39,929 nt of DNA, from IMG/VR virus record IMGVR_UViG_3300006113_000004; one strand, written 5' to 3'. The position numbers and the translations under genes are program-made. The notes under the pieces are model-generated. The model made no database searches. It worked only from the letters and a program-made list of their open reading frames with translations, and had not been told where the DNA came from. Origin of the DNA: a virus. This document shows positions 23,224 through 39,008 of the stretch, piece after piece; within the stretch, counting starts at the first letter, position 1, and each line of letters begins with the position of its first letter.

Positions 23224-25146
23224 CTAAGCACCAACGGGTACGGCGCTACCCATAGAAGCGGTTGCTGGGCCGGTGGCTGGCATATTGCTAGTCAACATGG
23301 GGGCTTTGCCTGCGGTGGCAGGGTGGGCGGACGCTAACAAGGAAACAAGGTCGGGCGGTCCTTGCGCTCCCTGCGGTGCCGGTGCGCTCGTGGGCTGCGT
23401 CGGGTCAAGTCCAGGCTGGGCTTCGGAAGAACCGGCCTGCTCTTGCTGGGCTTGGGCTTGGGCCGCTTGCTGCTTCTGAACATCTTTTTGGACCTGCTGA
23501 ACGACCGCTTCAATGGGTTCGCCCTTCAACCTTCCTTCGATGATTTGTGCAATTTCGTGAGGGGCGATCTGGCCCTGAGCCGCTTGCTGGTCAAGAGAGT
23601 CCATCAACGACTTTCGCAATTTCTCAATCTCAATCTTTTCGATTTCGGCGCGAGCGTCCTTAATCATCGGGTCGGCTTCCATCGCGGTCTGCTGGCTCAT
23701 CAACCCACCGCCGTACTTCTGAGCGAGCATGATCGTAAGCCCCTGCGCGTCGGTTCCGGCCATCGCGTACTCCACTTTGGAGTAGGTCATGGTAAAGAGT
23801 TCGTTCGGAACGTAGTCGCCTGGGCCCTCGATCTTCCCACTCTTGGGAATGAAGAACATGGACGGCTCGTCGCCGTAGTAGGACTTCATAATCCGACACG
23901 CGATTTCGTTCTCTTGCTCAAACGAATTGGCGAGAATGGTTTGGTCCTCTTGGATTCGTCCGTCAACCGTCGCGCCAAGAATATCCTGCCCTCGTCGTCC
24001 GGTGCGAATGTTGGACGCGGACTCTGCACCCCAGTCGGCAGGGACTCCACCGTTGGAACGCTGATTGGCTTCCAAGCGGTCCATCATCTGCATGGCGTCC
24101 TGTGGGCCGGGGTTGTGGATCGTCTGAAGTTGGGCGTTTTGGATTTCACCGATAATGCCGCGCTTGCCGTCCGCGTGAACAATGATGTTCGGCGGGGCAA
24201 TGGCGTTGGGGGTTCCAACCGCCCACTGGTCGTTAAACACGTTGTCAACAATGGCGATGGTGGAGAGTGCCATGAGCTTGCTTTGCATCATGTACATTCC
24301 GATCATCTGGTCAAACTGACCCGCGATTCGGTCAAGGGTAATCCGACCCGCAAAAACAACGGGGCAGACTTCGGCCTTGTTGACAATACGCATCAGAAGT
24401 TCGCACGAACTGTAGCCCTGAACGTTCGGGTCGTCCTTGTAGTTTCTACGTCCAGGGGGGTCTTGGCCCACGACAACCAAAACGTGTTCGCGGTCGTCAA
24501 CGTACTCCAAGACTTTGAATTCCGTAGTGTCGTTGAACTGCCGCCCCTTGTAAAGACGCTGAGCCGCGCCGGGGTAATTAGCTTGCAACCAACCGAGGGT
24601 GCGCTTGTCAGTAAAGATGCAGTTCTCAGGGTTGACGCCAAGGTGTTCGCTCATGCTCGATGGGAACGCCGTCAAAGGATTGCGGACGCGCCAGTGCGGA
24701 ATCCGGCGCTTGTCGGTCGGGTCGAGGGAAATGGGGGAAAGCGAAGCACAGGTCGAACCGTAGGCGGAAAGGTGGCGAGCCCTGCGACGGGTCTGCATAT
24801 CCCACTTGTTCATGTCCCACCAGCCAAGGTTTGCGTTGCGGCGGTTGTCGGCGGCTTGGTCGTGGCCCTTAAATCCGGGGCGGAAACTTGGATACCAAAT
24901 GTCCGGTCGGACAGACGCGACTCGCATGGAGTATTGGTCAATGCCCTGAGCAATCAGGTTGGGAACGGCGGATTGTTCCTCTTTGTCAAGTTCGGGGAGA
25001 TACACATGGGTGTCACCGTTGTAAGCATCGCGGACTTTCTCCATCGCCAAAATGCTCTTGCCGCGCTCCAACTGACGCTGCCGGTACTGAGAAAGAATTT
25101 CGCGGGCTGCTTCGTCGTCATTAAGCGGTAGGCGTGGGGTCCACAT
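23224..25146 (-). CDS. Portal protein, start refined to MWTPRLPL
   Basis: ~640 aa, directly downstream of the large terminase. The ATG at 25144-25146 shares one base with the terminase TGA (25146-25148). The C-terminal tail is Gln/Ala-rich. The call rests on position and size. Confidence 0.75.
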   Translation of the reverse strand: MWTPRLPLNDDEAAREILSQYRQRQLERGKSILAMEKVRDAYNGDTHVYLPELDKEEQSAVPNLIAQGIDQYSMRVASVRPDIWYPSFRPGFKGHDQAADNRRNANLGWWDMNKWDMQTRRRARHLSAYGSTCASLSPISLDPTDKRRIPHWRVRNPLTAFPSSMSEHLGVNPENCIFTDKRTLGWLQANYPGAAQRLYKGRQFNDTTEFKVLEYVDDREHVLVVVGQDPPGRRNYKDDPNVQGYSSCELLMRIVNKAEVCPVVFAGRITLDRIAGQFDQMIGMYMMQSKLMALSTIAIVDNVFNDQWAVGTPNAIAPPNIIVHADGKRGIIGEIQNAQLQTIHNPGPQDAMQMMDRLEANQRSNGGVPADWGAESASNIRTGRRGQDILGATVDGRIQEDQTILANSFEQENEIACRIMKSYYGDEPSMFFIPKSGKIEGPGDYVPNELFTMTYSKVEYAMAGTDAQGLTIMLAQKYGGGLMSQQTAMEADPMIKDARAEIEKIEIEKLRKSLMDSLDQQAAQGQIAPHEIAQIIEGRLKGEPIEAVVQQVQKDVQKQQAAQAQAQQEQAGSSEAQPGLDPTQPTSAPAPQGAQGPPDLVSLLASAHPATAGKAPMLTSNMPATGPATASMGSAVPVGA

Positions 25147-27098
25147 CAGGCAATCCTCTGTCGTTGTTGTAACCAACTAGGCCGAGTGGCCGCCCGTACT
25201 TCGCGCACTCTAGTTCTTATATTAGGCAAGTTCCACTCAAAAAACCACTGAGCCATCACGCAGTCGTCAGTTCGCATACCGCCGACTCCGTATTTGGTCA
25301 CTTCGTCAATGAGTTTAATGCTGGAAGTTGCCCCGCGTCCTTTGAGGGGAAGATTGACTTTCCCATCTCGATACAGCGGTCCAAGGGATTCTACACCGTA
25401 ATCACGGTCAGCCTTGTTTGCTCCCGTGGTGTGGGGGGTGACTTCAACGTTGTGCCTCAAAGTCCATTGTTTCATTGAGCTCGTCTGCAAGAAGAACTTG
25501 GCGGCGGCGTTTTGCTCAAAAATCCATCGCTGGATAGGGAACCCTAGACGGGTGGAGCGAACTTGCCATTCTTCCGCGAGGCCGGTGAAGGTGCTGGTGT
25601 TGAGGTCAAAGTCAAGAAATTCGGGGGCTTCCATCTTTGCGCGGTGCAGGGCAATTAGATACCTCATGTCGGTCGGCTTGTGATACACCCACACTTGGCA
25701 GGACCAATACATCGCTGGGGAAGGGTCCACCGAACCGACGATCAAACACTCTTGGACGGGGAGCATGGACCCGTCTGCCTTCTTGGGCCATTCCCATTCG
25801 TCGCGGTCGTAGTCAACGCATTTGGTCGGGTGGCCCTGCTGCCCGTACACCCACGCCGGATTGACCAAGGTTTGTGTCTGGGCTATGTCCTCTTGCTGGT
25901 AGATGACTTGGAAACGTTCGGAACGGTTGGTCATCAAACTTTGGATTTTGCGCCACGTCAATCGTTTGGGGGAAAGCAGACAGCCCTTCGGGTACGGCTC
26001 GGCGGAGTAAGCGTGGGAACCCTCGGTGCATTTTTCTTCGTAATGCGCTCGGTAAATAATGTGCTTGTACTTAGGCACCATCGCCGCGTCCTCTAAAGCT
26101 TCGGGGTCCTCGTCGTCGGGCACGTCATCAAGGGGGCGTTGCATATCAAGCGCAAATCGGTACAGGTCGTCAGACGCGATTCTCTGGCCCACTAAAGCAA
26201 AGAGCCCACCTGGTTCCAGTCGCGCTTCCATCACGTCCTGAAAGTTGTTCTCTAGTTCTTCTTTGGCTTCGACGGTTCGGGTTTTGCGTGGGTCAACGAG
26301 GTCGTCCCAGAGCGAAACGTCAATACGCGAACCAATATAGGAAGTGTCCATGCCGTAGGCTTGAAGCGTGGGGTCCTTGTTGGTGATTGAGGCCCCGTCC
26401 AACTGCTCCACAATCAACGCGGATTTGGTCCACACATCTCGCTCAATGGGCTTGAACCTGCCAAAGTCCTGCGCGAGCGAAGCCTCAGCGTCAAGGGCCA
26501 AGCCCCTGCGCTTCATGTCAGACCTAGCCAACATGGGTTGAGTTGATTCTAGAATTCGCTTGGCTTCCGACAGCATCTTGTCGGCTTGGGTCTGGGTTAC
26601 CGAACCAAAAAGAATTCGTACCCCTCGGTCACGGCAGATACACCAGAGGGCAAAGTCGAGAAACAGAGCCGACTTTCCTGAACCCGGTGGGCAGTTGACG
26701 ACAACGTATTCTTCTTCTTCGGACTCCCTCAACTCCATGAGTTTAAGGATTGCTTCTTCCTGCCACGGAATAGGGACTCGCCCTAGATACCGTTGGCGGA
26801 AATAGCGCAGGTCAGACAGAGCGCGTTTGGCTTCTGGCCCCAACGCCTCATACGGCAGAGGGGGCTTGATGGCCTTTTCTTCTTTTTCCTGAATCTGTTT
26901 TTTGATAACAGACTCTTTGGTGGTGAACTTGGCCGACCCGTGTTCTTTGGCGTACTCCGCTATTTTGGCCTTGTTCATCCAATCCAAAGCGGTTTTGTAG
27001 GAAATGCCCGCTTGACGCGCTGCTTCCGCTTTAGTAAGGCCAGCGTTGATGCACTTGAAGAAAATGCGGCGCTTGTCCTCGGATGCGTAGTTGACCAT
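25146..27098 (-). CDS. terL: Terminase large subunit with a fused N-terminal HTH domain
   Basis: 650 aa. Walker A is 'NCPPGSGKSALF'. The N-terminal 'INAGLTKAEAARQAGISYKTALDWMNK' is a helix-turn-helix of the type usually seen in small terminases or transposase HTHs. Confidence 0.9.
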   Translation of the reverse strand: MVNYASEDKRRIFFKCINAGLTKAEAARQAGISYKTALDWMNKAKIAEYAKEHGSAKFTTKESVIKKQIQEKEEKAIKPPLPYEALGPEAKRALSDLRYFRQRYLGRVPIPWQEEAILKLMELRESEEEEYVVVNCPPGSGKSALFLDFALWCICRDRGVRILFGSVTQTQADKMLSEAKRILESTQPMLARSDMKRRGLALDAEASLAQDFGRFKPIERDVWTKSALIVEQLDGASITNKDPTLQAYGMDTSYIGSRIDVSLWDDLVDPRKTRTVEAKEELENNFQDVMEARLEPGGLFALVGQRIASDDLYRFALDMQRPLDDVPDDEDPEALEDAAMVPKYKHIIYRAHYEEKCTEGSHAYSAEPYPKGCLLSPKRLTWRKIQSLMTNRSERFQVIYQQEDIAQTQTLVNPAWVYGQQGHPTKCVDYDRDEWEWPKKADGSMLPVQECLIVGSVDPSPAMYWSCQVWVYHKPTDMRYLIALHRAKMEAPEFLDFDLNTSTFTGLAEEWQVRSTRLGFPIQRWIFEQNAAAKFFLQTSSMKQWTLRHNVEVTPHTTGANKADRDYGVESLGPLYRDGKVNLPLKGRGATSSIKLIDEVTKYGVGGMRTDDCVMAQWFFEWNLPNIRTRVREVRAATRPSWLQQRQRIA

Positions 27099-27542: not shown

Positions 27543-28053
27543 ATCGCAGTCACCAGTGAGGGAGCAATGGAACGCTCACATCGTATCAGATGTTTAGTCC
27601 CATTTGCGTGCGTTGAGAGCAAAAATTGCTTTCTTCCGCAACGAGGGTGAGTTGGAGTTCTTCGCCGCCTTTAGTCGCGCCAGAGGAATCTTCTCATGCT
27701 CAGGGATGTGGAGTACTTCGTGCAGACTCCCGACTTTGCTGGGCTTGATCTTGATGGGCTTTGTCACGTTCTCTCTTTTCGGCTTCTAGACGGGCGACTT
27801 CTTTGGGGCTGACTTTTTTCTTCACCGGACAAGTGTAGCCGTGGCAGTAGAGTGGTTTTCGTGCATCTCGACCGCTACGGAGTGTGGGTGGGAAGTGACG
27901 TGGTGCGAAATGGAATTATCGGCTCCGCGCTGGTGATTGTTTTCGTGGTGTTAATCCACTTCTACACCAAAGGCCGGTGAGCGCAGCTATCGCAAAATCA
28001 GGCGTGTCTCAATATCCGGACATGGCGTGATGTACCAAAATCAGAACACCCCT

Positions 28054-28127
28054 TGGCCCCCACTACCGAGAGTCGAACTCGGTGTTACGGTTCCCGAAGG
28101 AATGGCAACGGCTCCCGGCCAGCAGGG
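28054..28127 (-). ncRNA. tRNA-like element without an anticodon loop (or a degenerate tRNA)
   Basis: The minus strand reads CCCTGCT-GG-CCGGGAGCCG..TTCC-TTCG-GGAA..-ACCGAG-TTCGACT-CTCGGT-AGTGGGG-G-CCA. It has a canonical T-arm with a TTCGACT loop. The 7-bp acceptor stem has two G-U pairs, which would be C-A mismatches on the other strand. CCA is encoded. The anticodon arm is replaced by a UUCG-capped hairpin. Confidence 0.35.
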
Positions 28128-28165
28128 TAAATCACCAGTTGCATACGCGCCATGCAACCAGCTAG

Positions 28166-28239
28166 TGGCGGATACGGGACTCGAACCCGTGACCTAGTGA
28201 GCATGAGTCACCCGCGCTACCAAACTGCGCCAATCCGCT
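28166..28239 (-). tRNA. tRNA-Met (anticodon CAT; could also be Ile2 if lysidinylated)
   Basis: Hand-folded cloverleaf. Acceptor AGCGGAT/ATCCGCC has an A1-C72 mismatch. U8 is present. The D stem is GCGC/GCGC. The anticodon stem is GGTGA/TCACT with loop CT-CAT-GC. The T arm is ACGGG-TTCGAGT-CCCGT. CCA is not encoded. Confidence 0.8.
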
Positions 28240-28248
28240 AAACAAATA

Positions 28249-28479
28249 TTACCGACCGAGACGGGCTTTGTCAAACATTTCTTGAACTCTGAGACGAGCT
28301 TCGGCCACGGCGGGGGAATCAGGAGTCTCGGAATAGTCTTTCTTCTTCGCCTTGGGGACAGTTTCCCTGGAACGAGGCACCCACCCCCCACACCGGAGAC
28401 AACGATTCCACTTCGCAGAAATCTTCACCGTCTTGTGATCGCACCATTCGCGGTACGGGGTTCCAAGTCGAGTAGCCAC
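28249..28479 (-). CDS. Possible small basic zinc-finger protein (76 aa, GTG start)
   Basis: The ORF lies directly upstream of the tRNA on the same strand. It carries 'CDH...CLRCGG'. There is no clear SD. A TTGCTT-17-TAGACA element ends 6 nt before the GTG, so the transcript could be leaderless. Coding status is uncertain. Confidence 0.4.
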   Translation of the reverse strand: MATRLGTPYREWCDHKTVKISAKWNRCLRCGGWVPRSRETVPKAKKKDYSETPDSPAVAEARLRVQEMFDKARLGR

Positions 28480-28659
28480 AAAGATTGTCTATCACCCCAC
28501 CCCCTCACAAGCAAGTCTTTTCAAAAACGTTATAGAACGTGCAAACACTGAGGATTGAGTCATCGTCAATTTTTTTCCTTGCCATTACTGAAGATTGAGA
28601 TTTGCTACAAAAAAGGGATAATTCCATAACGAAGAATCTTCAGACATAGAAAGAAAAAC

Positions 28660-28689
28660 TTGCAATGAGTTGACACGGGTGACTAGACT
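28660..28689 (+). promoter_or_regulatory. Candidate rightward promoter, TTGCAA-18-TAGACT, with an A-rich UP-like element
   Basis: The -35 TTGCAA is at 28660-28665 and the -10 TAGACT at 28684-28689. 'agaaagaaaaac' lies immediately upstream. It points into ~680 nt with no convincing ORF before the plus-strand cassette. Confidence 0.35.
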
Positions 28690-28989
28690 AGGCGGAGCAA
28701 CGCACGAGTGAGCGCAGAAGCGAACGACAACTACCTGCCGCCCTTTACACGCCAGCCTGACGGCGGCGAGTTACGGTTGCCGCTACCGCGCCGTTTCACG
28801 GCTTTGGTGTCTGGGGGAGTTCAAATCTGGGAGTCAGAGATTCTGGACCTGGAGTTACGAAGTACAAAGAGCGATCACAGTAACAAATGCGGTGATTGCA
28901 GATATGCAAATTACACATTGGTGTAGAGGGGATACCCACAGCGCAACACAAGCTGGCCTCGGCACACTACCGGTCAAAGCCGGTGAGAT

Positions 28990-29020
28990 TGTGGATAAGT
29001 TGTGGAAAACTTGTGGGAAA
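28990..29020 (+). promoter_or_regulatory. Array of three head-to-tail DnaA boxes with 11-bp phasing
   Basis: TGTGGATAA (28990-28998) is the exact complement of the consensus TTATCCACA. TGTGGAAAA (29001-29009) fits TTWTNCACA. TGTGGGAAA (29012-29020) has one mismatch. The starts are spaced exactly 11 and 11 bp apart. Confidence 0.5.
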
Positions 29021-29307
29021 AGGGGGGGTCTGAGAGAACGGAGCGATTCGCTTAGGCCCCCAGCCACGATGGTCACCCAAGGCCCTCACAACTTGACATA
29101 ACCTTGAAACCCAAGTCCCTGCTAATGATGCTGTCGATCTGGTCCTCACTACGTTATGTAAAGTGAGACTGATTCTCAATACCTATCCCTTGCAAACTAA
29201 AGTTCACACTTTGCAAACTATTGTTAACACCTGTGGGGGCTGCGTTATGTCAAGCTACCTAGGTGTCTGGTAGGTGGAAATTTCTCTCTCTGATGGTCCT
29301 TTGTGAC

Positions 29308-29335
29308 TTGGCACTCACCTAGTTATGTGTATACT
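29308..29335 (+). promoter_or_regulatory. Candidate promoter of the plus-strand cassette, TTGGCA-16-TATACT
   Basis: The -35 is at 29308-29313 and the -10 at 29330-29335, about 38 nt upstream of the ATG at 29373. It is overlapped by the CACCTAG and GTTATGT repeat motifs. Confidence 0.45.
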
Positions 29336-29372
29336 GAATAGGTGGCGACAATGCCAGTGAATAGGGGAGAAT

Positions 29373-29741
29373 ATGAGTATCGAAGAAATGAGAGCTGCGG
29401 TAAAGATCCTGGCTGATTCGCGGCGGGGCGCTATCGCGTTCTCGCTGCCCATTGTGTCAGGTGCTTACGGATTCGAGGAAGTGCGTGAGCGCATGGCGCA
29501 GAAAGTCACAGTTACGCGCAGGGCAACCATAAAAGAAGCCCTAAAAGATCAGGATTCCGTTCCGCTCACTGAGGCGCGTGGGATGACGGTCACAGTGAAG
29601 GGTTACGCGTACCGTGATTCCGGCGGGCGCGTGGTGATTCTGCGAGACGGGACCGCCACAGTTGATGGTAAGAAGATCAAGGTTCGTAAGGTGGTATCCG
29701 TTCTCTCCCCGCGTGAGATTCTGTCACTGGCGGCAGCATGA
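29373..29741 (+). CDS. Hypothetical protein (122 aa), first gene of the opposite-strand cassette
   Basis: ATG with a GGGGAGA SD. The N-terminal half is helical and the C-terminal half is beta-rich ('TVTVKGYAYRDSGGRVVILRDGTATVDGKKIKVRKV'). No motif recognised. Confidence 0.75.
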   Translation: MSIEEMRAAVKILADSRRGAIAFSLPIVSGAYGFEEVRERMAQKVTVTRRATIKEALKDQDSVPLTEARGMTVTVKGYAYRDSGGRVVILRDGTATVDGKKIKVRKVVSVLSPREILSLAAA

Positions 29742-29890
29742 ACGTTACATTCGGGATGGTCGCGGACCGGCTGAGTGATCTAGTCGCGGAGCTACGGGAG
29801 ATAGGCGTAGATTCGCCAGGGGTCGCCAACGTGGTCGAAACGTTGGACGGTATCCGCGAGGGGTGCGACTACCGGAGCGTGAACGGATGA
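29738..29890 (+). CDS. Small acidic protein (50 aa), not in the ORF track: MNVTFGMVADRLSDLVAELREIGVDSPGVANVVETLDGIREGCDYRSVNG
   Basis: Hand translation. It has ATGA overlaps at both ends (29738-29741 and 29887-29890), which couple it to the flanking genes. Confidence 0.55.
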   Translation: MNVTFGMVADRLSDLVAELREIGVDSPGVANVVETLDGIREGCDYRSVNG

Positions 29891-30084
29891 GAGAACATTT
29901 TTCAAGCGTTCTAGCGACGGTGGCGGCGGTGGTGGTCGAGTGCTTACTACTGCCCCACGTCCTCACTTTTGTGGCGTTGTTTGTCGCGTTCATGGCGTGG
30001 TGCGTGGCGTGGGCACTCATCCATGCTACGCTGACCTCCCTAGCGCGTTCTAGAGCCTTCAGGAAGGTTCCTACGCGGTGGTAG
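29887..30084 (+). CDS. Small 2-TM membrane protein (65 aa)
   Basis: An internal ATG of track ORF 29863-30084 is coupled by ATGA to the preceding micro-ORF. The hydrophobic segments are 'VLATVAAVVVECLLLPHVLTFVALFVAFMAWCVAWALI'. Confidence 0.6.
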   Translation: MREHFSSVLATVAAVVVECLLLPHVLTFVALFVAFMAWCVAWALIHATLTSLARSRAFRKVPTRW

Positions 30085-31989: not shown

Positions 31990-32376
31990 TTAGTTTAGTT
32001 GCCTTCTGGCTTTACCCTCTGCTACATAAAGTCGGTGCGCCGCCATTGACGCTTCGCACGGTTTCTCGCCGTAACGGAGATGGCGCATATAGGCCGCGTT
32101 GGTGCTGCACGGCAGTAACTCTTTAAGGACGATTCCTGCTTCTTTCCTCATGCCTCGCAAGGTGTTCGCGGAGTATCCGGCTTGGAACCCCAGTGCACAA
32201 TTCCGCAACGCATCTTGGAAACACGCATCTCTGACGGGACAATCCTTGCAGATTCTCCGTAGTTCGTTGAGCCGCTTTAACCCGAACGAGGTTTTGTCCT
32301 TGTTGGGCATCCACATTTCAGGGTCGGTCCCAGCGCAATGCCTTTCGGGGTTGAGATACCAAGGGTTGTCGCTCAC
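31990..32376 (-). CDS. whiB: WhiB-like Fe-S transcription factor with a C-terminal Cys-containing extension, start refined to GTG
   Basis: 'CAGTDPEMW...CKDCPVRDAC' is the WhiB 4-Cys pattern. The GTG at 32374-32376 overlaps the upstream TGA (GTGA). The C-terminal 'CSTNAAYMRHLRYGEKPCEASMAAH' is an extra motif. Confidence 0.85.
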   Translation of the reverse strand: MSDNPWYLNPERHCAGTDPEMWMPNKDKTSFGLKRLNELRRICKDCPVRDACFQDALRNCALGFQAGYSANTLRGMRKEAGIVLKELLPCSTNAAYMRHLRYGEKPCEASMAAHRLYVAEGKARRQLN

Positions 32377-32714
32377 GTCACCCTCACAATGGACGACAGA
32401 AGGCTCTGAAAGGCACTCATACGGGCTTGTGAGGCTCGCAACGCTTCTCTGAGGGTAGATACATTGGCTTCGGCCAGAAGGCACGCTCGGCGCTGTTCTT
32501 CGGTCTGCACCATAGCAATATCTTCGGCTCGCTTGTCCGACGACGCCCCATTGACCCGTGCGGTAATTCGTGCTTGGGCTGAGGCGACTTTGTAATCCGC
32601 GTCAAGGTTTGCGGCGTTGGTGGTGGCTGGGCCGAGTTCTTCCACCAGCTCACGGAGTCTCTTGGCTTCCTTGCTGATGGCCTGCTCGACCTGGGCTTGG
32701 ACAAGAACCTCCAT
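32373..32714 (-). CDS. Hypothetical coiled-coil protein
   Basis: 113 aa, helical. It shares one base with the SSB stop. Confidence 0.7.
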   Translation of the reverse strand: MEVLVQAQVEQAISKEAKRLRELVEELGPATTNAANLDADYKVASAQARITARVNGASSDKRAEDIAMVQTEEQRRACLLAEANVSTLREALRASQARMSAFQSLLSSIVRVT

Positions 32715-36415: not shown

Positions 36416-37188
36416 TTCGTCACCTCGCGCAGTTCATATTGCTTGCCGTTGATTTCCACTATCGTTCCGGCGCACGTCGGTTCTTCCTTGACCGGCTCGA
36501 ACACTCCGTCTTTGACCAGTGTGATGTAATCGCCCACTTGAATTTCCGTGATGTTCCAATCGGGGCTCTTGGTAGCAAACGCCCAGCCCGAAACCATGCG
36601 GTGGTCGCCGGACACCCACGCATTGCCGGACACCCGCGCATCGCCGTGCACCCACGCATTGCCGGACACCTGCGCATTGCCGGACACCCGCGCATCGCCG
36701 TGCACCCACGCATTGCCGGACACCTGCGCATTGCCGGACACCCGAGCATCGCCGTGCACCCACGCATTGCCGGACACCTGCGCATTGCCGGACACCCGAG
36801 CATCGCCGTGCACCCACGCATTGCCGGACACCTGCGCATTGCCGGACACCCGAGCGTTGCCGGACACCCGAGCGTTGCCGAAAACCCACGCAGAGTCTTG
36901 GTCGCTCAGGTTCTTCTCTGACTCGACCAATCCTCCCTCGTCTCCCTTCTTGACCCCAAATCGCACGTCACGTTCAGCAACGATGCGGAACAGTGGCTTC
37001 CCGTTTGGGGTGACCAGATCGGTTTCGCGTAGTGAATACTTACTGTTCTTCATTTCTTTTTCCTTTGTCATTTCATTCTCCTTTGGTAGTGGTTTCCAGT
37101 TGATGCAAATTCCTTTAATGGTTGCGCTTTGTCGTTGGTGGGGGAGCAGGTGCATGGAAAACGGGTTGTCGCAGGTTCCAAGTGTCAT
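36412..37188 (-). CDS. Hexapeptide-repeat (beta-helix-like) protein
   Basis: 258 aa. It contains 16 consecutive hexads of the A-x-V-[SHF]-G-[ND] type (AWVFGN ARVSGN ... AWVSGD). The ATG at 37188 is coupled by ATGA. An alternative start at 37071 has a strong AAGGAGA SD. Confidence 0.8.
   Translation of the reverse strand: MTLGTCDNPFSMHLLPHQRQSATIKGICINWKPLPKENEMTKEKEMKNSKYSLRETDLVTPNGKPLFRIVAERDVRFGVKKGDEGGLVESEKNLSDQDSAWVFGNARVSGNARVSGNAQVSGNAWVHGDARVSGNAQVSGNAWVHGDARVSGNAQVSGNAWVHGDARVSGNAQVSGNAWVHGDARVSGNAWVSGDHRMVSGWAFATKSPDWNITEIQVGDYITLVKDGVFEPVKEEPTCAGTIVEINGKQYELREVTK
36604..36891. repeat. 18-bp tandem repeat x16, with a 54-bp higher-order unit x4
   Basis: Units such as attgccggacacctgcgc / attgccggacacccgcgc / atcgccgtgcacccacgc are read directly from the sequence. 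They are in frame with the CDS. Confidence 0.95.
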
Positions 37189-37529
37189 CGTGTCTCCCTA
37201 AGTAGGTCCAGAGCGCGACGTAGGGCCGCGAGTTCACCCAAACGTGCCAGTTCCTCGTCGTCGTCGGCAATTTCGGCTTCGACGCTTTGGCGGTACGTTT
37301 CGATCTTGGCGATTGCTTCCTCTAGTCGGTCATAGCCGTCAATAGCGTCTTGGATGCGTTGGGCGCAGGCTTTGGCTTCGTCAAGGGTGGGGGTGTTTGG
37401 GTGTCCGATGTAGACGTTCCACCCTCCACGGTTGTCGTCGGGGGAAATCACGAACTGACCGGCGACGTGATCGCTTCCACCGCCCTTCGCCTTTTCCTCG
37501 GTCCACTTCAATACTGTGCGCTCAGTCAT
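37185..37529 (-). CDS. Hypothetical protein
   Basis: 114-aa ORF coupled on both sides. Confidence 0.7.
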   Translation of the reverse strand: MTERTVLKWTEEKAKGGGSDHVAGQFVISPDDNRGGWNVYIGHPNTPTLDEAKACAQRIQDAIDGYDRLEEAIAKIETYRQSVEAEIADDDEELARLGELAALRRALDLLRETR

Positions 37530-38166: not shown

Positions 38167-39008
38167 TTTGCCTTCCCCTCAATGTCCACTTCCACGCACT
38201 TGAGAATCTTGGCAACCTTGCACTTGTCTGAACTTCCGTCATATTCGGTGATTGTCACAATGTCGGCCACCGCAACCGTGCAAGCCACAAAACGGGTTGC
38301 CTCATTCATGCAGCGCAGAGCGTGAAAAGGGGTGGGGCATAGGTGGAGTCCGTCACCGCAGGAGTTTTCGGGGATCCACTTTTCGGGAACGGGCTTCGAG
38401 CCAGGGGAGTAATCCCATCCGTAGCCTGACTTAAAATTGTCGTCCACGGCCTTGAATAGAACCACCTTGCCTGACTTGGTAATCGGGATGCCGTGGTACT
38501 CCAACCAGCCTTGTGTGTCTCGCAGGTCAGGGCGTTCGATAATGACTCCACCCGTGATTTTTGCGGCCTTGCTCAATTTGTGTACGGCGACTCGATCACC
38601 AGCCGTGACCGTGGCGGAGTCGTAGGCCGTGACCGTGGCGGAGCCGTAGGCCGTGACCGTGGCGGAGCCGGTGGCCGTGACCGTGGCGGAGCCGTAGGCC
38701 GTGACCGTGGCGGAGCCGGTGGCCGTGACCGTGGCGGAGCCGGTGGCCGTGACCGTGGCGGAGTCGTAGGCCCTGACCGTGGCGGAGTCGTAGGCCGTGA
38801 CCGTGGCGGAGCCGGTGGCCGTGACCGTGGCGGAGTCGTAGGCCCTGACCGTGGCGGAGTCGTAGGCCCTGACCGTGGCGGAGTCGTAGGCCCTGACCGT
38901 GGCGGAGTCGGTCACTTCCCAATAGCCCTCACGGACTACGGGAATGTCACCGTCCTTGATGGCTTTGTCAAATTCCTTTTGAGTTTTGCACTCAACGTAC
39001 TTGTTCAT
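38163..39008 (-). CDS. Octapeptide-repeat protein with a conserved Cys-containing C-terminal domain
   Basis: 281 aa. It contains 13 tandem copies of [DG]SATV[RT]A[YT]. The C-terminal domain follows: 'VVLFKAVDDNFKSGYGWDYSPG...CGDGLHLCPTPFHAL'. Confidence 0.8.
   Translation of the reverse strand: MNKYVECKTQKEFDKAIKDGDIPVVREGYWEVTDSATVRAYDSATVRAYDSATVRAYDSATVTATGSATVTAYDSATVRAYDSATVTATGSATVTATGSATVTAYGSATVTATGSATVTAYGSATVTAYDSATVTAGDRVAVHKLSKAAKITGGVIIERPDLRDTQGWLEYHGIPITKSGKVVLFKAVDDNFKSGYGWDYSPGSKPVPEKWIPENSCGDGLHLCPTPFHALRCMNEATRFVACTVAVADIVTITEYDGSSDKCKVAKILKCVEVDIEGKAK
38601..38912. repeat. 24-bp tandem repeat, about 13 copies
   Basis: The unit is gaccgtggcggag[tc]cg[tg][at]ggcc[gc]t, read directly from the sequence. 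Only 4 positions vary, and the array is in frame. Confidence 0.95.

Follow-up and report, generated by a model that had tools for sequence, protein, structure and literature searches.

A phased array of DnaA-box-like repeats in the control region of a phage genome as a putative landing pad for host DnaA

Three DnaA-box-like 9-mers lie head-to-tail, with starts exactly 11 bp apart, in the single large control region of a phage genome (IMG/VR record IMGVR_UViG_3300006113_000004; the window means the whole stretch of 39,929 nucleotides analysed). The array is non-random, is conserved in a moderately diverged relative (L024) and has the architecture of the arrays at bacterial chromosomal origins. 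On balance it is read here as a cis-acting landing pad for host DnaA, whose binding is predicted, and it would probably capture host DnaA rather than serve as a self-sufficient, oriC-like origin. We infer both the binding and its effect from sequence.

Sequence and phasing of the array

28990-28998 (TTATCCACA), 29001-29009 (TTTTCCACA) and 29012-29020 (TTTCCCACA), minus strand: three DnaA-box-like 9-mers, head-to-tail, with 2-bp spacers
29022-29028, plus strand: run of seven G adjoining the third box; read on the strand of the boxes, a C-run 5' of the array (sequence reading)

The TGTGG core starts at 28990, 29001 and 29012, in exact 11-bp steps and in identical orientation, and by sequence reading the plus strand of 28989-29021 consists of three 11-bp units, aTTGTGGATAAG TTGTGGAAAAC TTGTGGGAAAA. 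This confirmed the three head-to-tail boxes described in the earlier note, and its grading of them was reproduced by sequence reading: TTATCCACA is a perfect box, TTTTCCACA fits the relaxed consensus TTWTNCACA, and TTTCCCACA has one mismatch, at position 4. Tandem Repeats Finder returned a period of 11, 2.9 copies and a score of 43. The classical actinobacterial DnaA box is TTGTCCACA, and the units in the window carry T or A at position 3; A or T at this position was also found in actinobacterial examples, namely the phage Tiff81 and the Aeriscardovia chromosome (L172). The G run was not kept in L024.

The cluster is unique in the genome, as the earlier note had expected, since a scan of the whole window gave two exact matches to TTWTNCACA and both fall inside the array. 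The total number of boxes is at chance level (2 observed, 2.1 expected), and sites with at most one mismatch are if anything depleted (31 in the genome against 47.7 +/- 7.0 in shuffles). In 2000 dinucleotide-preserving shuffles, any three sites within 40 bp occurred in 56, and a same-strand triple with a 10-12 bp phase in only one. Enrichment over shuffled sequence thus holds for the phased triple but not for the number of boxes, and the repeats are supported as a selected element, not a product of chance.

Gene content of the window

The ends of the window overlap by 120 bp, which indicates a circular assembly of ~39.8 kb, and almost all genes are located on the minus strand. Pfam and PHROG scans of about 55 ORFs identified endolysin, major capsid protein and large terminase (TerL, 25146-27098, minus strand), together with SSB, RusA, a metallophosphoesterase-type exonuclease, a Cas4-like exonuclease, a Rad52-like annealase (83-664), an HslV-like peptidase and HNH. 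The same scans revealed a WhiB gene (31990-32484), a sign of an actinobacterial host. The identity of TerL to the terminases of Streptomyces phages is 26%, and neither the array region nor half of the genome had a nucleotide match in cultured phages.

No polymerase, primase, helicase, helicase loader or initiator was found among these ORFs, and Pfam searches of the window (E up to 1 for small ORFs) gave no phage-encoded DnaA domain IV. The earlier note had described a phage with no recognisable replication genes, which stands for polymerase, primase, helicase and initiator but overlooked a recombination toolkit composed of SSB, RusA, the Rad52-like annealase and nucleases. This toolkit could support origin-independent, recombination-dependent replication.

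The sign of the GC skew flips at ~30 kb and ~37 kb (about 29500-30000 and 37000-37500), though the genes to either side share the minus strand, and the coding strand of the structural region is C-rich. Two in-frame tandem repeats were observed, one at 36607-36892 (18 bp x 15.9) in a beta-solenoid/bactofilin-like ORF and another at 38602-38910 (24 bp x 12.9) in a DUF7666 ORF. Gene calls of contig L017 in this repeat region have 120, 61 and 123 aa, versus 194, 137 and 258 aa for the ORFs of the window, and the start of that contig falls, by arithmetic, near the 18-bp repeat.

Control region around the array

28249-28479, minus strand: small Cys-rich ORF of 76 aa, first gene leftward of the control region
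28527-28690: AT-rich block, 30-37% GC, ~330 bp from the boxes
28595-28622, plus strand: promoter-like TTGAGA-16-GATAAT in the AT-rich block, pointing towards the boxes
28890-29069: conserved non-coding island holding the array, 60-77% identical to L024 (30-bp identity profile)
28911-28926: palindrome TTACAC-ATTG-GTGTAG (CTACACnnnnGTGTAG in L024)
28932-28940, plus strand: inverted box-like element ATACCCACA, weak (2 mismatches), facing the array
28969-28984: small hairpin ACCGG-TCAAAG-CCGGT, 5 bp from the array
29308-29335, plus strand: sigma-70-like promoter TTGGCA-16-TATACT of the only rightward operon

The array is located in the sole large non-coding stretch (~27.8-29.37 kb), with the late/packaging operon on one side and, on the other, the single rightward operon, which starts at 29373 with ORFs of 122, 50 and 65 aa. 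In an exhaustive HMMER search the 122-aa neighbour gave only two close homologues plus weak repeat-domain matches, and its AlphaFold model had a pLDDT of 59.7. Two ORFs crossing the boxes (28892-29101, plus strand, and 28855-29076, minus strand) were considered as genes and rejected, because conservation stops at the repeat itself. On the left side, the unannotated 76-aa ORF carries CLRCGGW, has no family match, and shows a coding-type substitution pattern against L024; a tRNA-Met (CAT, 28165-28239, minus strand) with a promoter-like site at 28274-28246 lies inside the non-coding region and is absent from L024.

Two hairpins had been noted as flanking the array, and both fold in the window. 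The one at 28969-28984 is weak (-5.1 kcal/mol, z about -1.2), and its pairing is kept in relatives, where the stem changes compensatorily to AACCCG/CGGGTT in L024 and to ACC-CAG/CTGGGT in L001 with the loop TTTGAC retained; the one at 29024-29061 (-10.2 kcal/mol) does not fold in L024, so it is not conserved. The motif CTACCCAC(A/C)G near 28932-28940 is common to all three relatives, and the palindrome at 28911-28926 is possibly the site of a dimeric regulator.

Further to the right, a repeat cluster specific to the window occupies 29091-29335, none of it alignable with L024. It contains a 21-bp tandem, TTGCAAACTAAAGTTCACAC x2 (29190-29230, absent from L024), and four GTTATGT(C/A)AAG-type motifs, two of which form an exact 11-bp inverted repeat (29092-29102 / 29244-29254). 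These repeats may be operators of the 122-aa operon.

The core of the AT-rich block (28530-28619) is about 92% identical to L024, versus about 70-75% for the adjoining coding DNA. The block carries ACTGARGATTGAG twice, 40 bp apart, and the promoter-like TTGAGA-16-GAT(A/G)AT, which keeps its position and is aimed at the boxes in both the window and L024. Judged by identity, the block is a separately conserved element with stronger constraint than that on the boxes. Within 100 bp of the array, 40-bp windows have 45-65% GC, and the closest AT-rich DNA is at 28520-28660. The AT-rich block that the earlier note had proposed as an unwinding element ~320 bp away is real, but it is not adjacent to the boxes (330 bp) and is conserved independently together with its promoter-like match.

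Conservation in related phages

Five public contigs derived from different samples match the region at 100% identity and are hence uninformative, and only three relatives were informative for the comparison of the array. L024, a Logan contig with a TerL of 90% amino acid identity, is the only moderately diverged one and covers the whole intergenic region. Its array (353-400) reads ACTTTTCCACA-AGTTTTCCACA-GCTTTTCCACA-AGTTTTCCACA, four phased units of which all four are TTTTCCACA, and resembles a duplication of a 22-bp two-box unit. The non-coding flanks are about 74% identical to L024 or unalignable: left of the island, 28710-28889 is mostly 23-58% identical with the exception of the bin 28800-28829 (73%), and right of it 29070-29309 is unalignable (23-43%).

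L001 (TerL 72%) keeps the hairpin, TGCCGAG, CTACCCAC(A/C)G and a palindrome, and at the homologous position it has no boxes and no CCACA repeats, with unrelated sequence containing GGTCGGGA x2 there. The array is therefore kept, and expanded to four units, in one related phage but absent from another. In the IMG/VR relatives found via TerL (L001-L016), which are too distant, no DnaA-box cluster was observed upstream of TerL.

In relatives whose TerL is about 44% identical (L010-L013, L016), a gene pair lies 1.6 kb upstream of TerL, at an inter-module position syntenic with the array region of the window; its first member encodes an HTH_36 protein and contains three iterons, and its second encodes a G39P-like loader. 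By its gene families this pair is an SPP1-type origin module. In L016 (4370-5685) the HTH_36 initiator contains three AAGAAGTACTAT iterons (16-bp period) and 2x TCCACCGCTAACGGC, and then the G39P-like loader follows. No remnant of this initiator module was detected in the window by tblastn, and the family scans gave no HTH_36 or G39P matches.

In relatives whose 122-aa protein is 90-93% identical (L022, L023 and the ENA ERZ1426851 contig), two plus-strand ORFs (154 and 164 aa), not non-coding DNA, lie directly upstream. In L022 and L023 homology ends about 30 bp before the start codon of the 122-aa ORF, which marks the control region as a mosaic hot spot. A block of 24 tRNA genes was observed just upstream of the terminase region in L009 (6089-8502, TerL 45%).

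Occurrence of the same architecture in bacteria and other phages

When 185,579 species genomes were scanned for exact triples of TT(A/G/T)TCCACA separated by 2-bp spacers, at least 120 matches appeared, versus a chance expectation of about 0.002. Among the large ORFs flanking the triples listed, 37 of 111 encoded DnaA and 25 the beta clamp DnaN, together 62 of 111, so head-to-tail units in 11-bp phase are a hallmark of origin regions on chromosomes. In the actinobacterial chromosome of Aeriscardovia (L172) the array lies just downstream of dnaA; cyanobacterial and Saccharibacteria-labelled contigs among the matches listed carry TTTTCCACA units, and an Actinomycetota MAG contig (L217) carries GCTTTTCCACA x3, with the unit and GC spacer as in L024.

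Phased pairs were present in at least 120 IMG/VR contigs, half of those listed with three to seven boxes and about two thirds of those listed intergenic, while exact TTTTCCACA triples were found in 21 IMG/VR contigs of 38-66% GC without protein similarity to the phage of the window. A C-rich tract stands 5' of the array in 15 of the 120 listed IMG/VR arrays versus one of 120 on the 3' side, and also in Tiff81. In the Arthrobacter phages Tiff81 and Seahorse the array is 50-90 bp from the linear record end, in T7-like Berlinviruses it lies in the non-coding junction beside a packaging gene, and in lactococcal 949-like phages it lies in a 1.6-kb gap; T5-like Klebsiella phages and microviruses carry similar arrays. 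The T7-like and T5-like phages have their own replisomes, and therefore such arrays need not be origins.

Phage arrays of 2-7 units were seen in IMG/VR contigs L025-L144 and L269-L288 and in the cultured phage records PV105567 (L145), MK685668 (L146), KP090453 (L267) and KY554768 (L268), mostly in large non-coding regions and several near a record end, with (A/G)GTTATCCACAG or GTTTTCCACAG as the extended unit. A partner gene common to the phage arrays was considered and rejected, the flanking families being heterogeneous: 150 ORFs flanking the listed IMG/VR arrays included AAA_25 four times and PriCT_2 three times (primase/helicase) and a few terminases. A jackhmmer search of 5,797 ORFs near these arrays with typed E. 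coli and B. subtilis seeds gave no DnaA domain IV.

Possible functions of the array

In the proposed mechanism each 9-mer would be read by domain IV of DnaA. Because the units are head-to-tail and 2 bp apart, adjacent DnaA molecules would be able to touch and assemble into a short cooperative oligomer, in the manner of the phased arrays at chromosomal origins. The pad would be sited in the single large control region (~27.8-29.37 kb), with the divergent 122-aa operon on one side and the late/packaging operon on the other. A shared host factor, DnaA, is favoured over lineage-specific phage proteins because one motif and one phasing recur in unrelated phages and at oriC. Points against DnaA binding are the loss of the boxes in L001, the small number of informative relatives (three) and the departure from the classical actinobacterial box at position 3, which the actinobacterial examples with A or T soften. 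As to what the captured DnaA would do, two roles seem likelier than others, neither of them probable by itself: its use or sequestration for timing, tethering or titration in a control or terminal region, as proposed for T5, is a possibility that we hold tentatively; that the array helps to recruit the host replisome in an initiator-less phage, perhaps with transcription from the AT-rich block, is conceivable and slightly less likely.

The alternative that survives best attributes the repeats to a protein of the phage itself.

26901-27098, minus strand: N-terminal helix-turn-helix (HTH) of TerL (gene 25146-27098), candidate reader of the repeats

On this view the repeats would serve as iterons for a phage DNA-binding protein, chiefly this HTH, and would form a pac/cos-type array upstream of the packaging operon whose likeness to DnaA boxes is coincidental. 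We regard this as somewhat improbable. An N-terminal HTH (within residues 1-66 in the window) exists in every TerL of the family (window, L001-L016 and L024) with a clade-specific recognition helix, which suggests a built-in packaging-site reader replacing a separate small terminase. The window and L024, both with boxes, share the helix ISYKTALDW without change, and L001, which has GGTCGGGA x2 and no boxes, has ITRKTGDSW in its place, but this covariation comprises three sequences and any lineage-specific feature would give the same pattern. The position is also suitable, since the only large non-coding region holds the array 1.9 kb upstream of TerL, the records of the distant Streptomyces relatives have about 1.1 kb before the start of TerL, and the similar array of Tiff81 is close to its record end. 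DnaA boxes were what the first reading specifically sought, so that a chance box-likeness of ordinary iterons is selected for. Against the terminase reading, a random 11-bp iteron fits the relaxed DnaA consensus with a probability below about 1e-3, and motif and phasing recur in unrelated phages, including terminase-less microviruses, and at bacterial oriC. If the terminase reading were true, the array would mark the packaging recognition site of a family whose TerL carries its own DNA-reading domain.

That the array and the AT-rich block together make an origin opened by host DnaA alone, an oriC mimic replacing the phage initiator, is considered unlikely. An origin of this kind would fit the oriC-type architecture, a gene set in which initiator and replisome genes were not found, relatives that hold an initiator/origin module at the syntenic position, the primase/helicase genes beside some listed IMG/VR arrays, and the strongly conserved AT-rich block with its promoter-like match aimed at the boxes. 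It is opposed by the local base composition, with AT-rich DNA 330 bp off, and DnaA-trio (3-nt) periodicity was not visible in either flank of the array in the window or L024. The boxes number only 3-4, and L001 is without them at the homologous spot. The cumulative GC skew has a maximum, not a minimum, at ~29.5-30 kb, a terminus-like polarity that is a weak test for a phage. SSB, the Rad52-like annealase, exonucleases and RusA could sustain recombination-dependent replication without an origin, and similar arrays occur in phages that have their own replisomes. Reliance on DnaA alone is not known for any phage. An iteron origin of the lambda O or SPP1 G38P type was not recognised either, no initiator gene overlapping or adjoining the repeats in the window. 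The earlier proposal of a host-DnaA-dependent origin or titrating site was partly upheld: DnaA-box match, oriC-type phasing and the lack of an own initiator stand, but adjacent unwinding DNA and DnaA-trios are missing, the skew is terminus-like and L001 lacks boxes.

A bolder generalization, which seems doubtful to us, is that phased oriC-style arrays are a widespread and essentially undescribed phage cis element and that host DnaA alone may start replication or anchor the genome here, in a lineage that would have lost the SPP1-type initiator module of its relatives. If true, a phage replicon or control region would for the first time be seen to depend on the host initiator alone.

It is very improbable that the repeats act as RNA, as UGUGGAAAA repeats and a hairpin in a transcript from 28595-28622 (plus strand) forming a protein-binding or structural motif, or that they are an inert tandem duplication, and RNA-level roles and chance taken together remain at the same low level: the kept promoter-like match, the compensatory stem changes and the duplication-like array of L024 are in accord with such readings, but a scan of 27700-29450 by Rfam E-value gave tRNA only, consensus folds were weak with few covarying pairs in an alignment of two sequences, the box-crossing ORFs are not conserved beyond the repeat itself, and an inert duplication would not hold seven units within one mismatch of a DnaA box while the flanks diverge.

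The landing pad for host DnaA is thus preferred. If DnaA binds, this phage, and apparently many unrelated ones, would plug into the host initiation switch via a short DNA array alone, which would offer a handle on the copying of phages without replication genes, on phage sensing or disturbance of the host cell cycle, and on the role of the recurrent DnaA-box arrays in large non-coding phage regions. Arrays of TT(A/T)TCCACA in 11-bp phase could become a searchable annotation feature of phage control regions.

Comparison with known DnaA-box systems

The closest likeness is to the arrays of bacterial oriC, such as those of E. coli with low-affinity boxes 2 bp apart: the 9-mers fit TTATCCACA or TTTTCCACA and stand head-to-tail with starts 11 bp apart. 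The window and L024 contain 3-4 such units, a facing weak box is close by in the window, and the flanks (A/G)(G/C) resemble GTTATCCACAG. Unlike oriC, the array is carried by a phage, is not beside dnaA or dnaN, has far fewer boxes, and is without an adjacent AT-rich unwinding element or DnaA-trios.

For phages, no account of phased DnaA-box arrays was found in the literature beyond the preprint on the T5 injection-stop (iss) region, cited again in 2026, and the classical plasmid and lambda cases. In the T5 iss region, clusters of DnaA boxes lie in a large repeat-rich untranslated region and were argued to be non-replicative; the boxes come in pairs with a 3-bp gap, lying inside inverted repeats of the terminal repeat, and their role is only proposed (bioRxiv 10.1101/866236). 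The boxes of the window likewise lie in a large untranslated repeat-rich phage region, but they form a single direct array with 2-bp spacers, and no inverted-repeat framework or evidence of a terminal repeat was seen.

The SPP1-type module, a G38P-like initiator with internal iterons and a G39P-like loader, occupies the syntenic position upstream of TerL in L010-L013 and L016. Its genes are absent from the window, and its direct repeats (AAGAAGTACTAT x3, 16-bp period) differ from those of the array in both sequence and period.

The chromosomal loci datA and DARS and the DnaA-box clusters of Bacillus are, like the array, small groups of boxes away from an unwinding element. Loci of the datA/DARS type could sequester or remodel DnaA, and they are chromosomal, with another arrangement of boxes and with IHF dependence, in contrast to the array, which is phage-borne and without identified IHF-type partners.

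P1 oriR, F, pSC101, RK2 and the DnaA-modulated lambda ori resemble the window in that a mobile replicon has host DnaA boxes in its control or origin region. They possess an initiator of the Rep or O type that has separate iterons, unlike the window, where neither an initiator gene nor a second conserved iteron set was found. Going by its sequence, the array belongs best with the DnaA-box clusters of mobile replicons, an already known kind.
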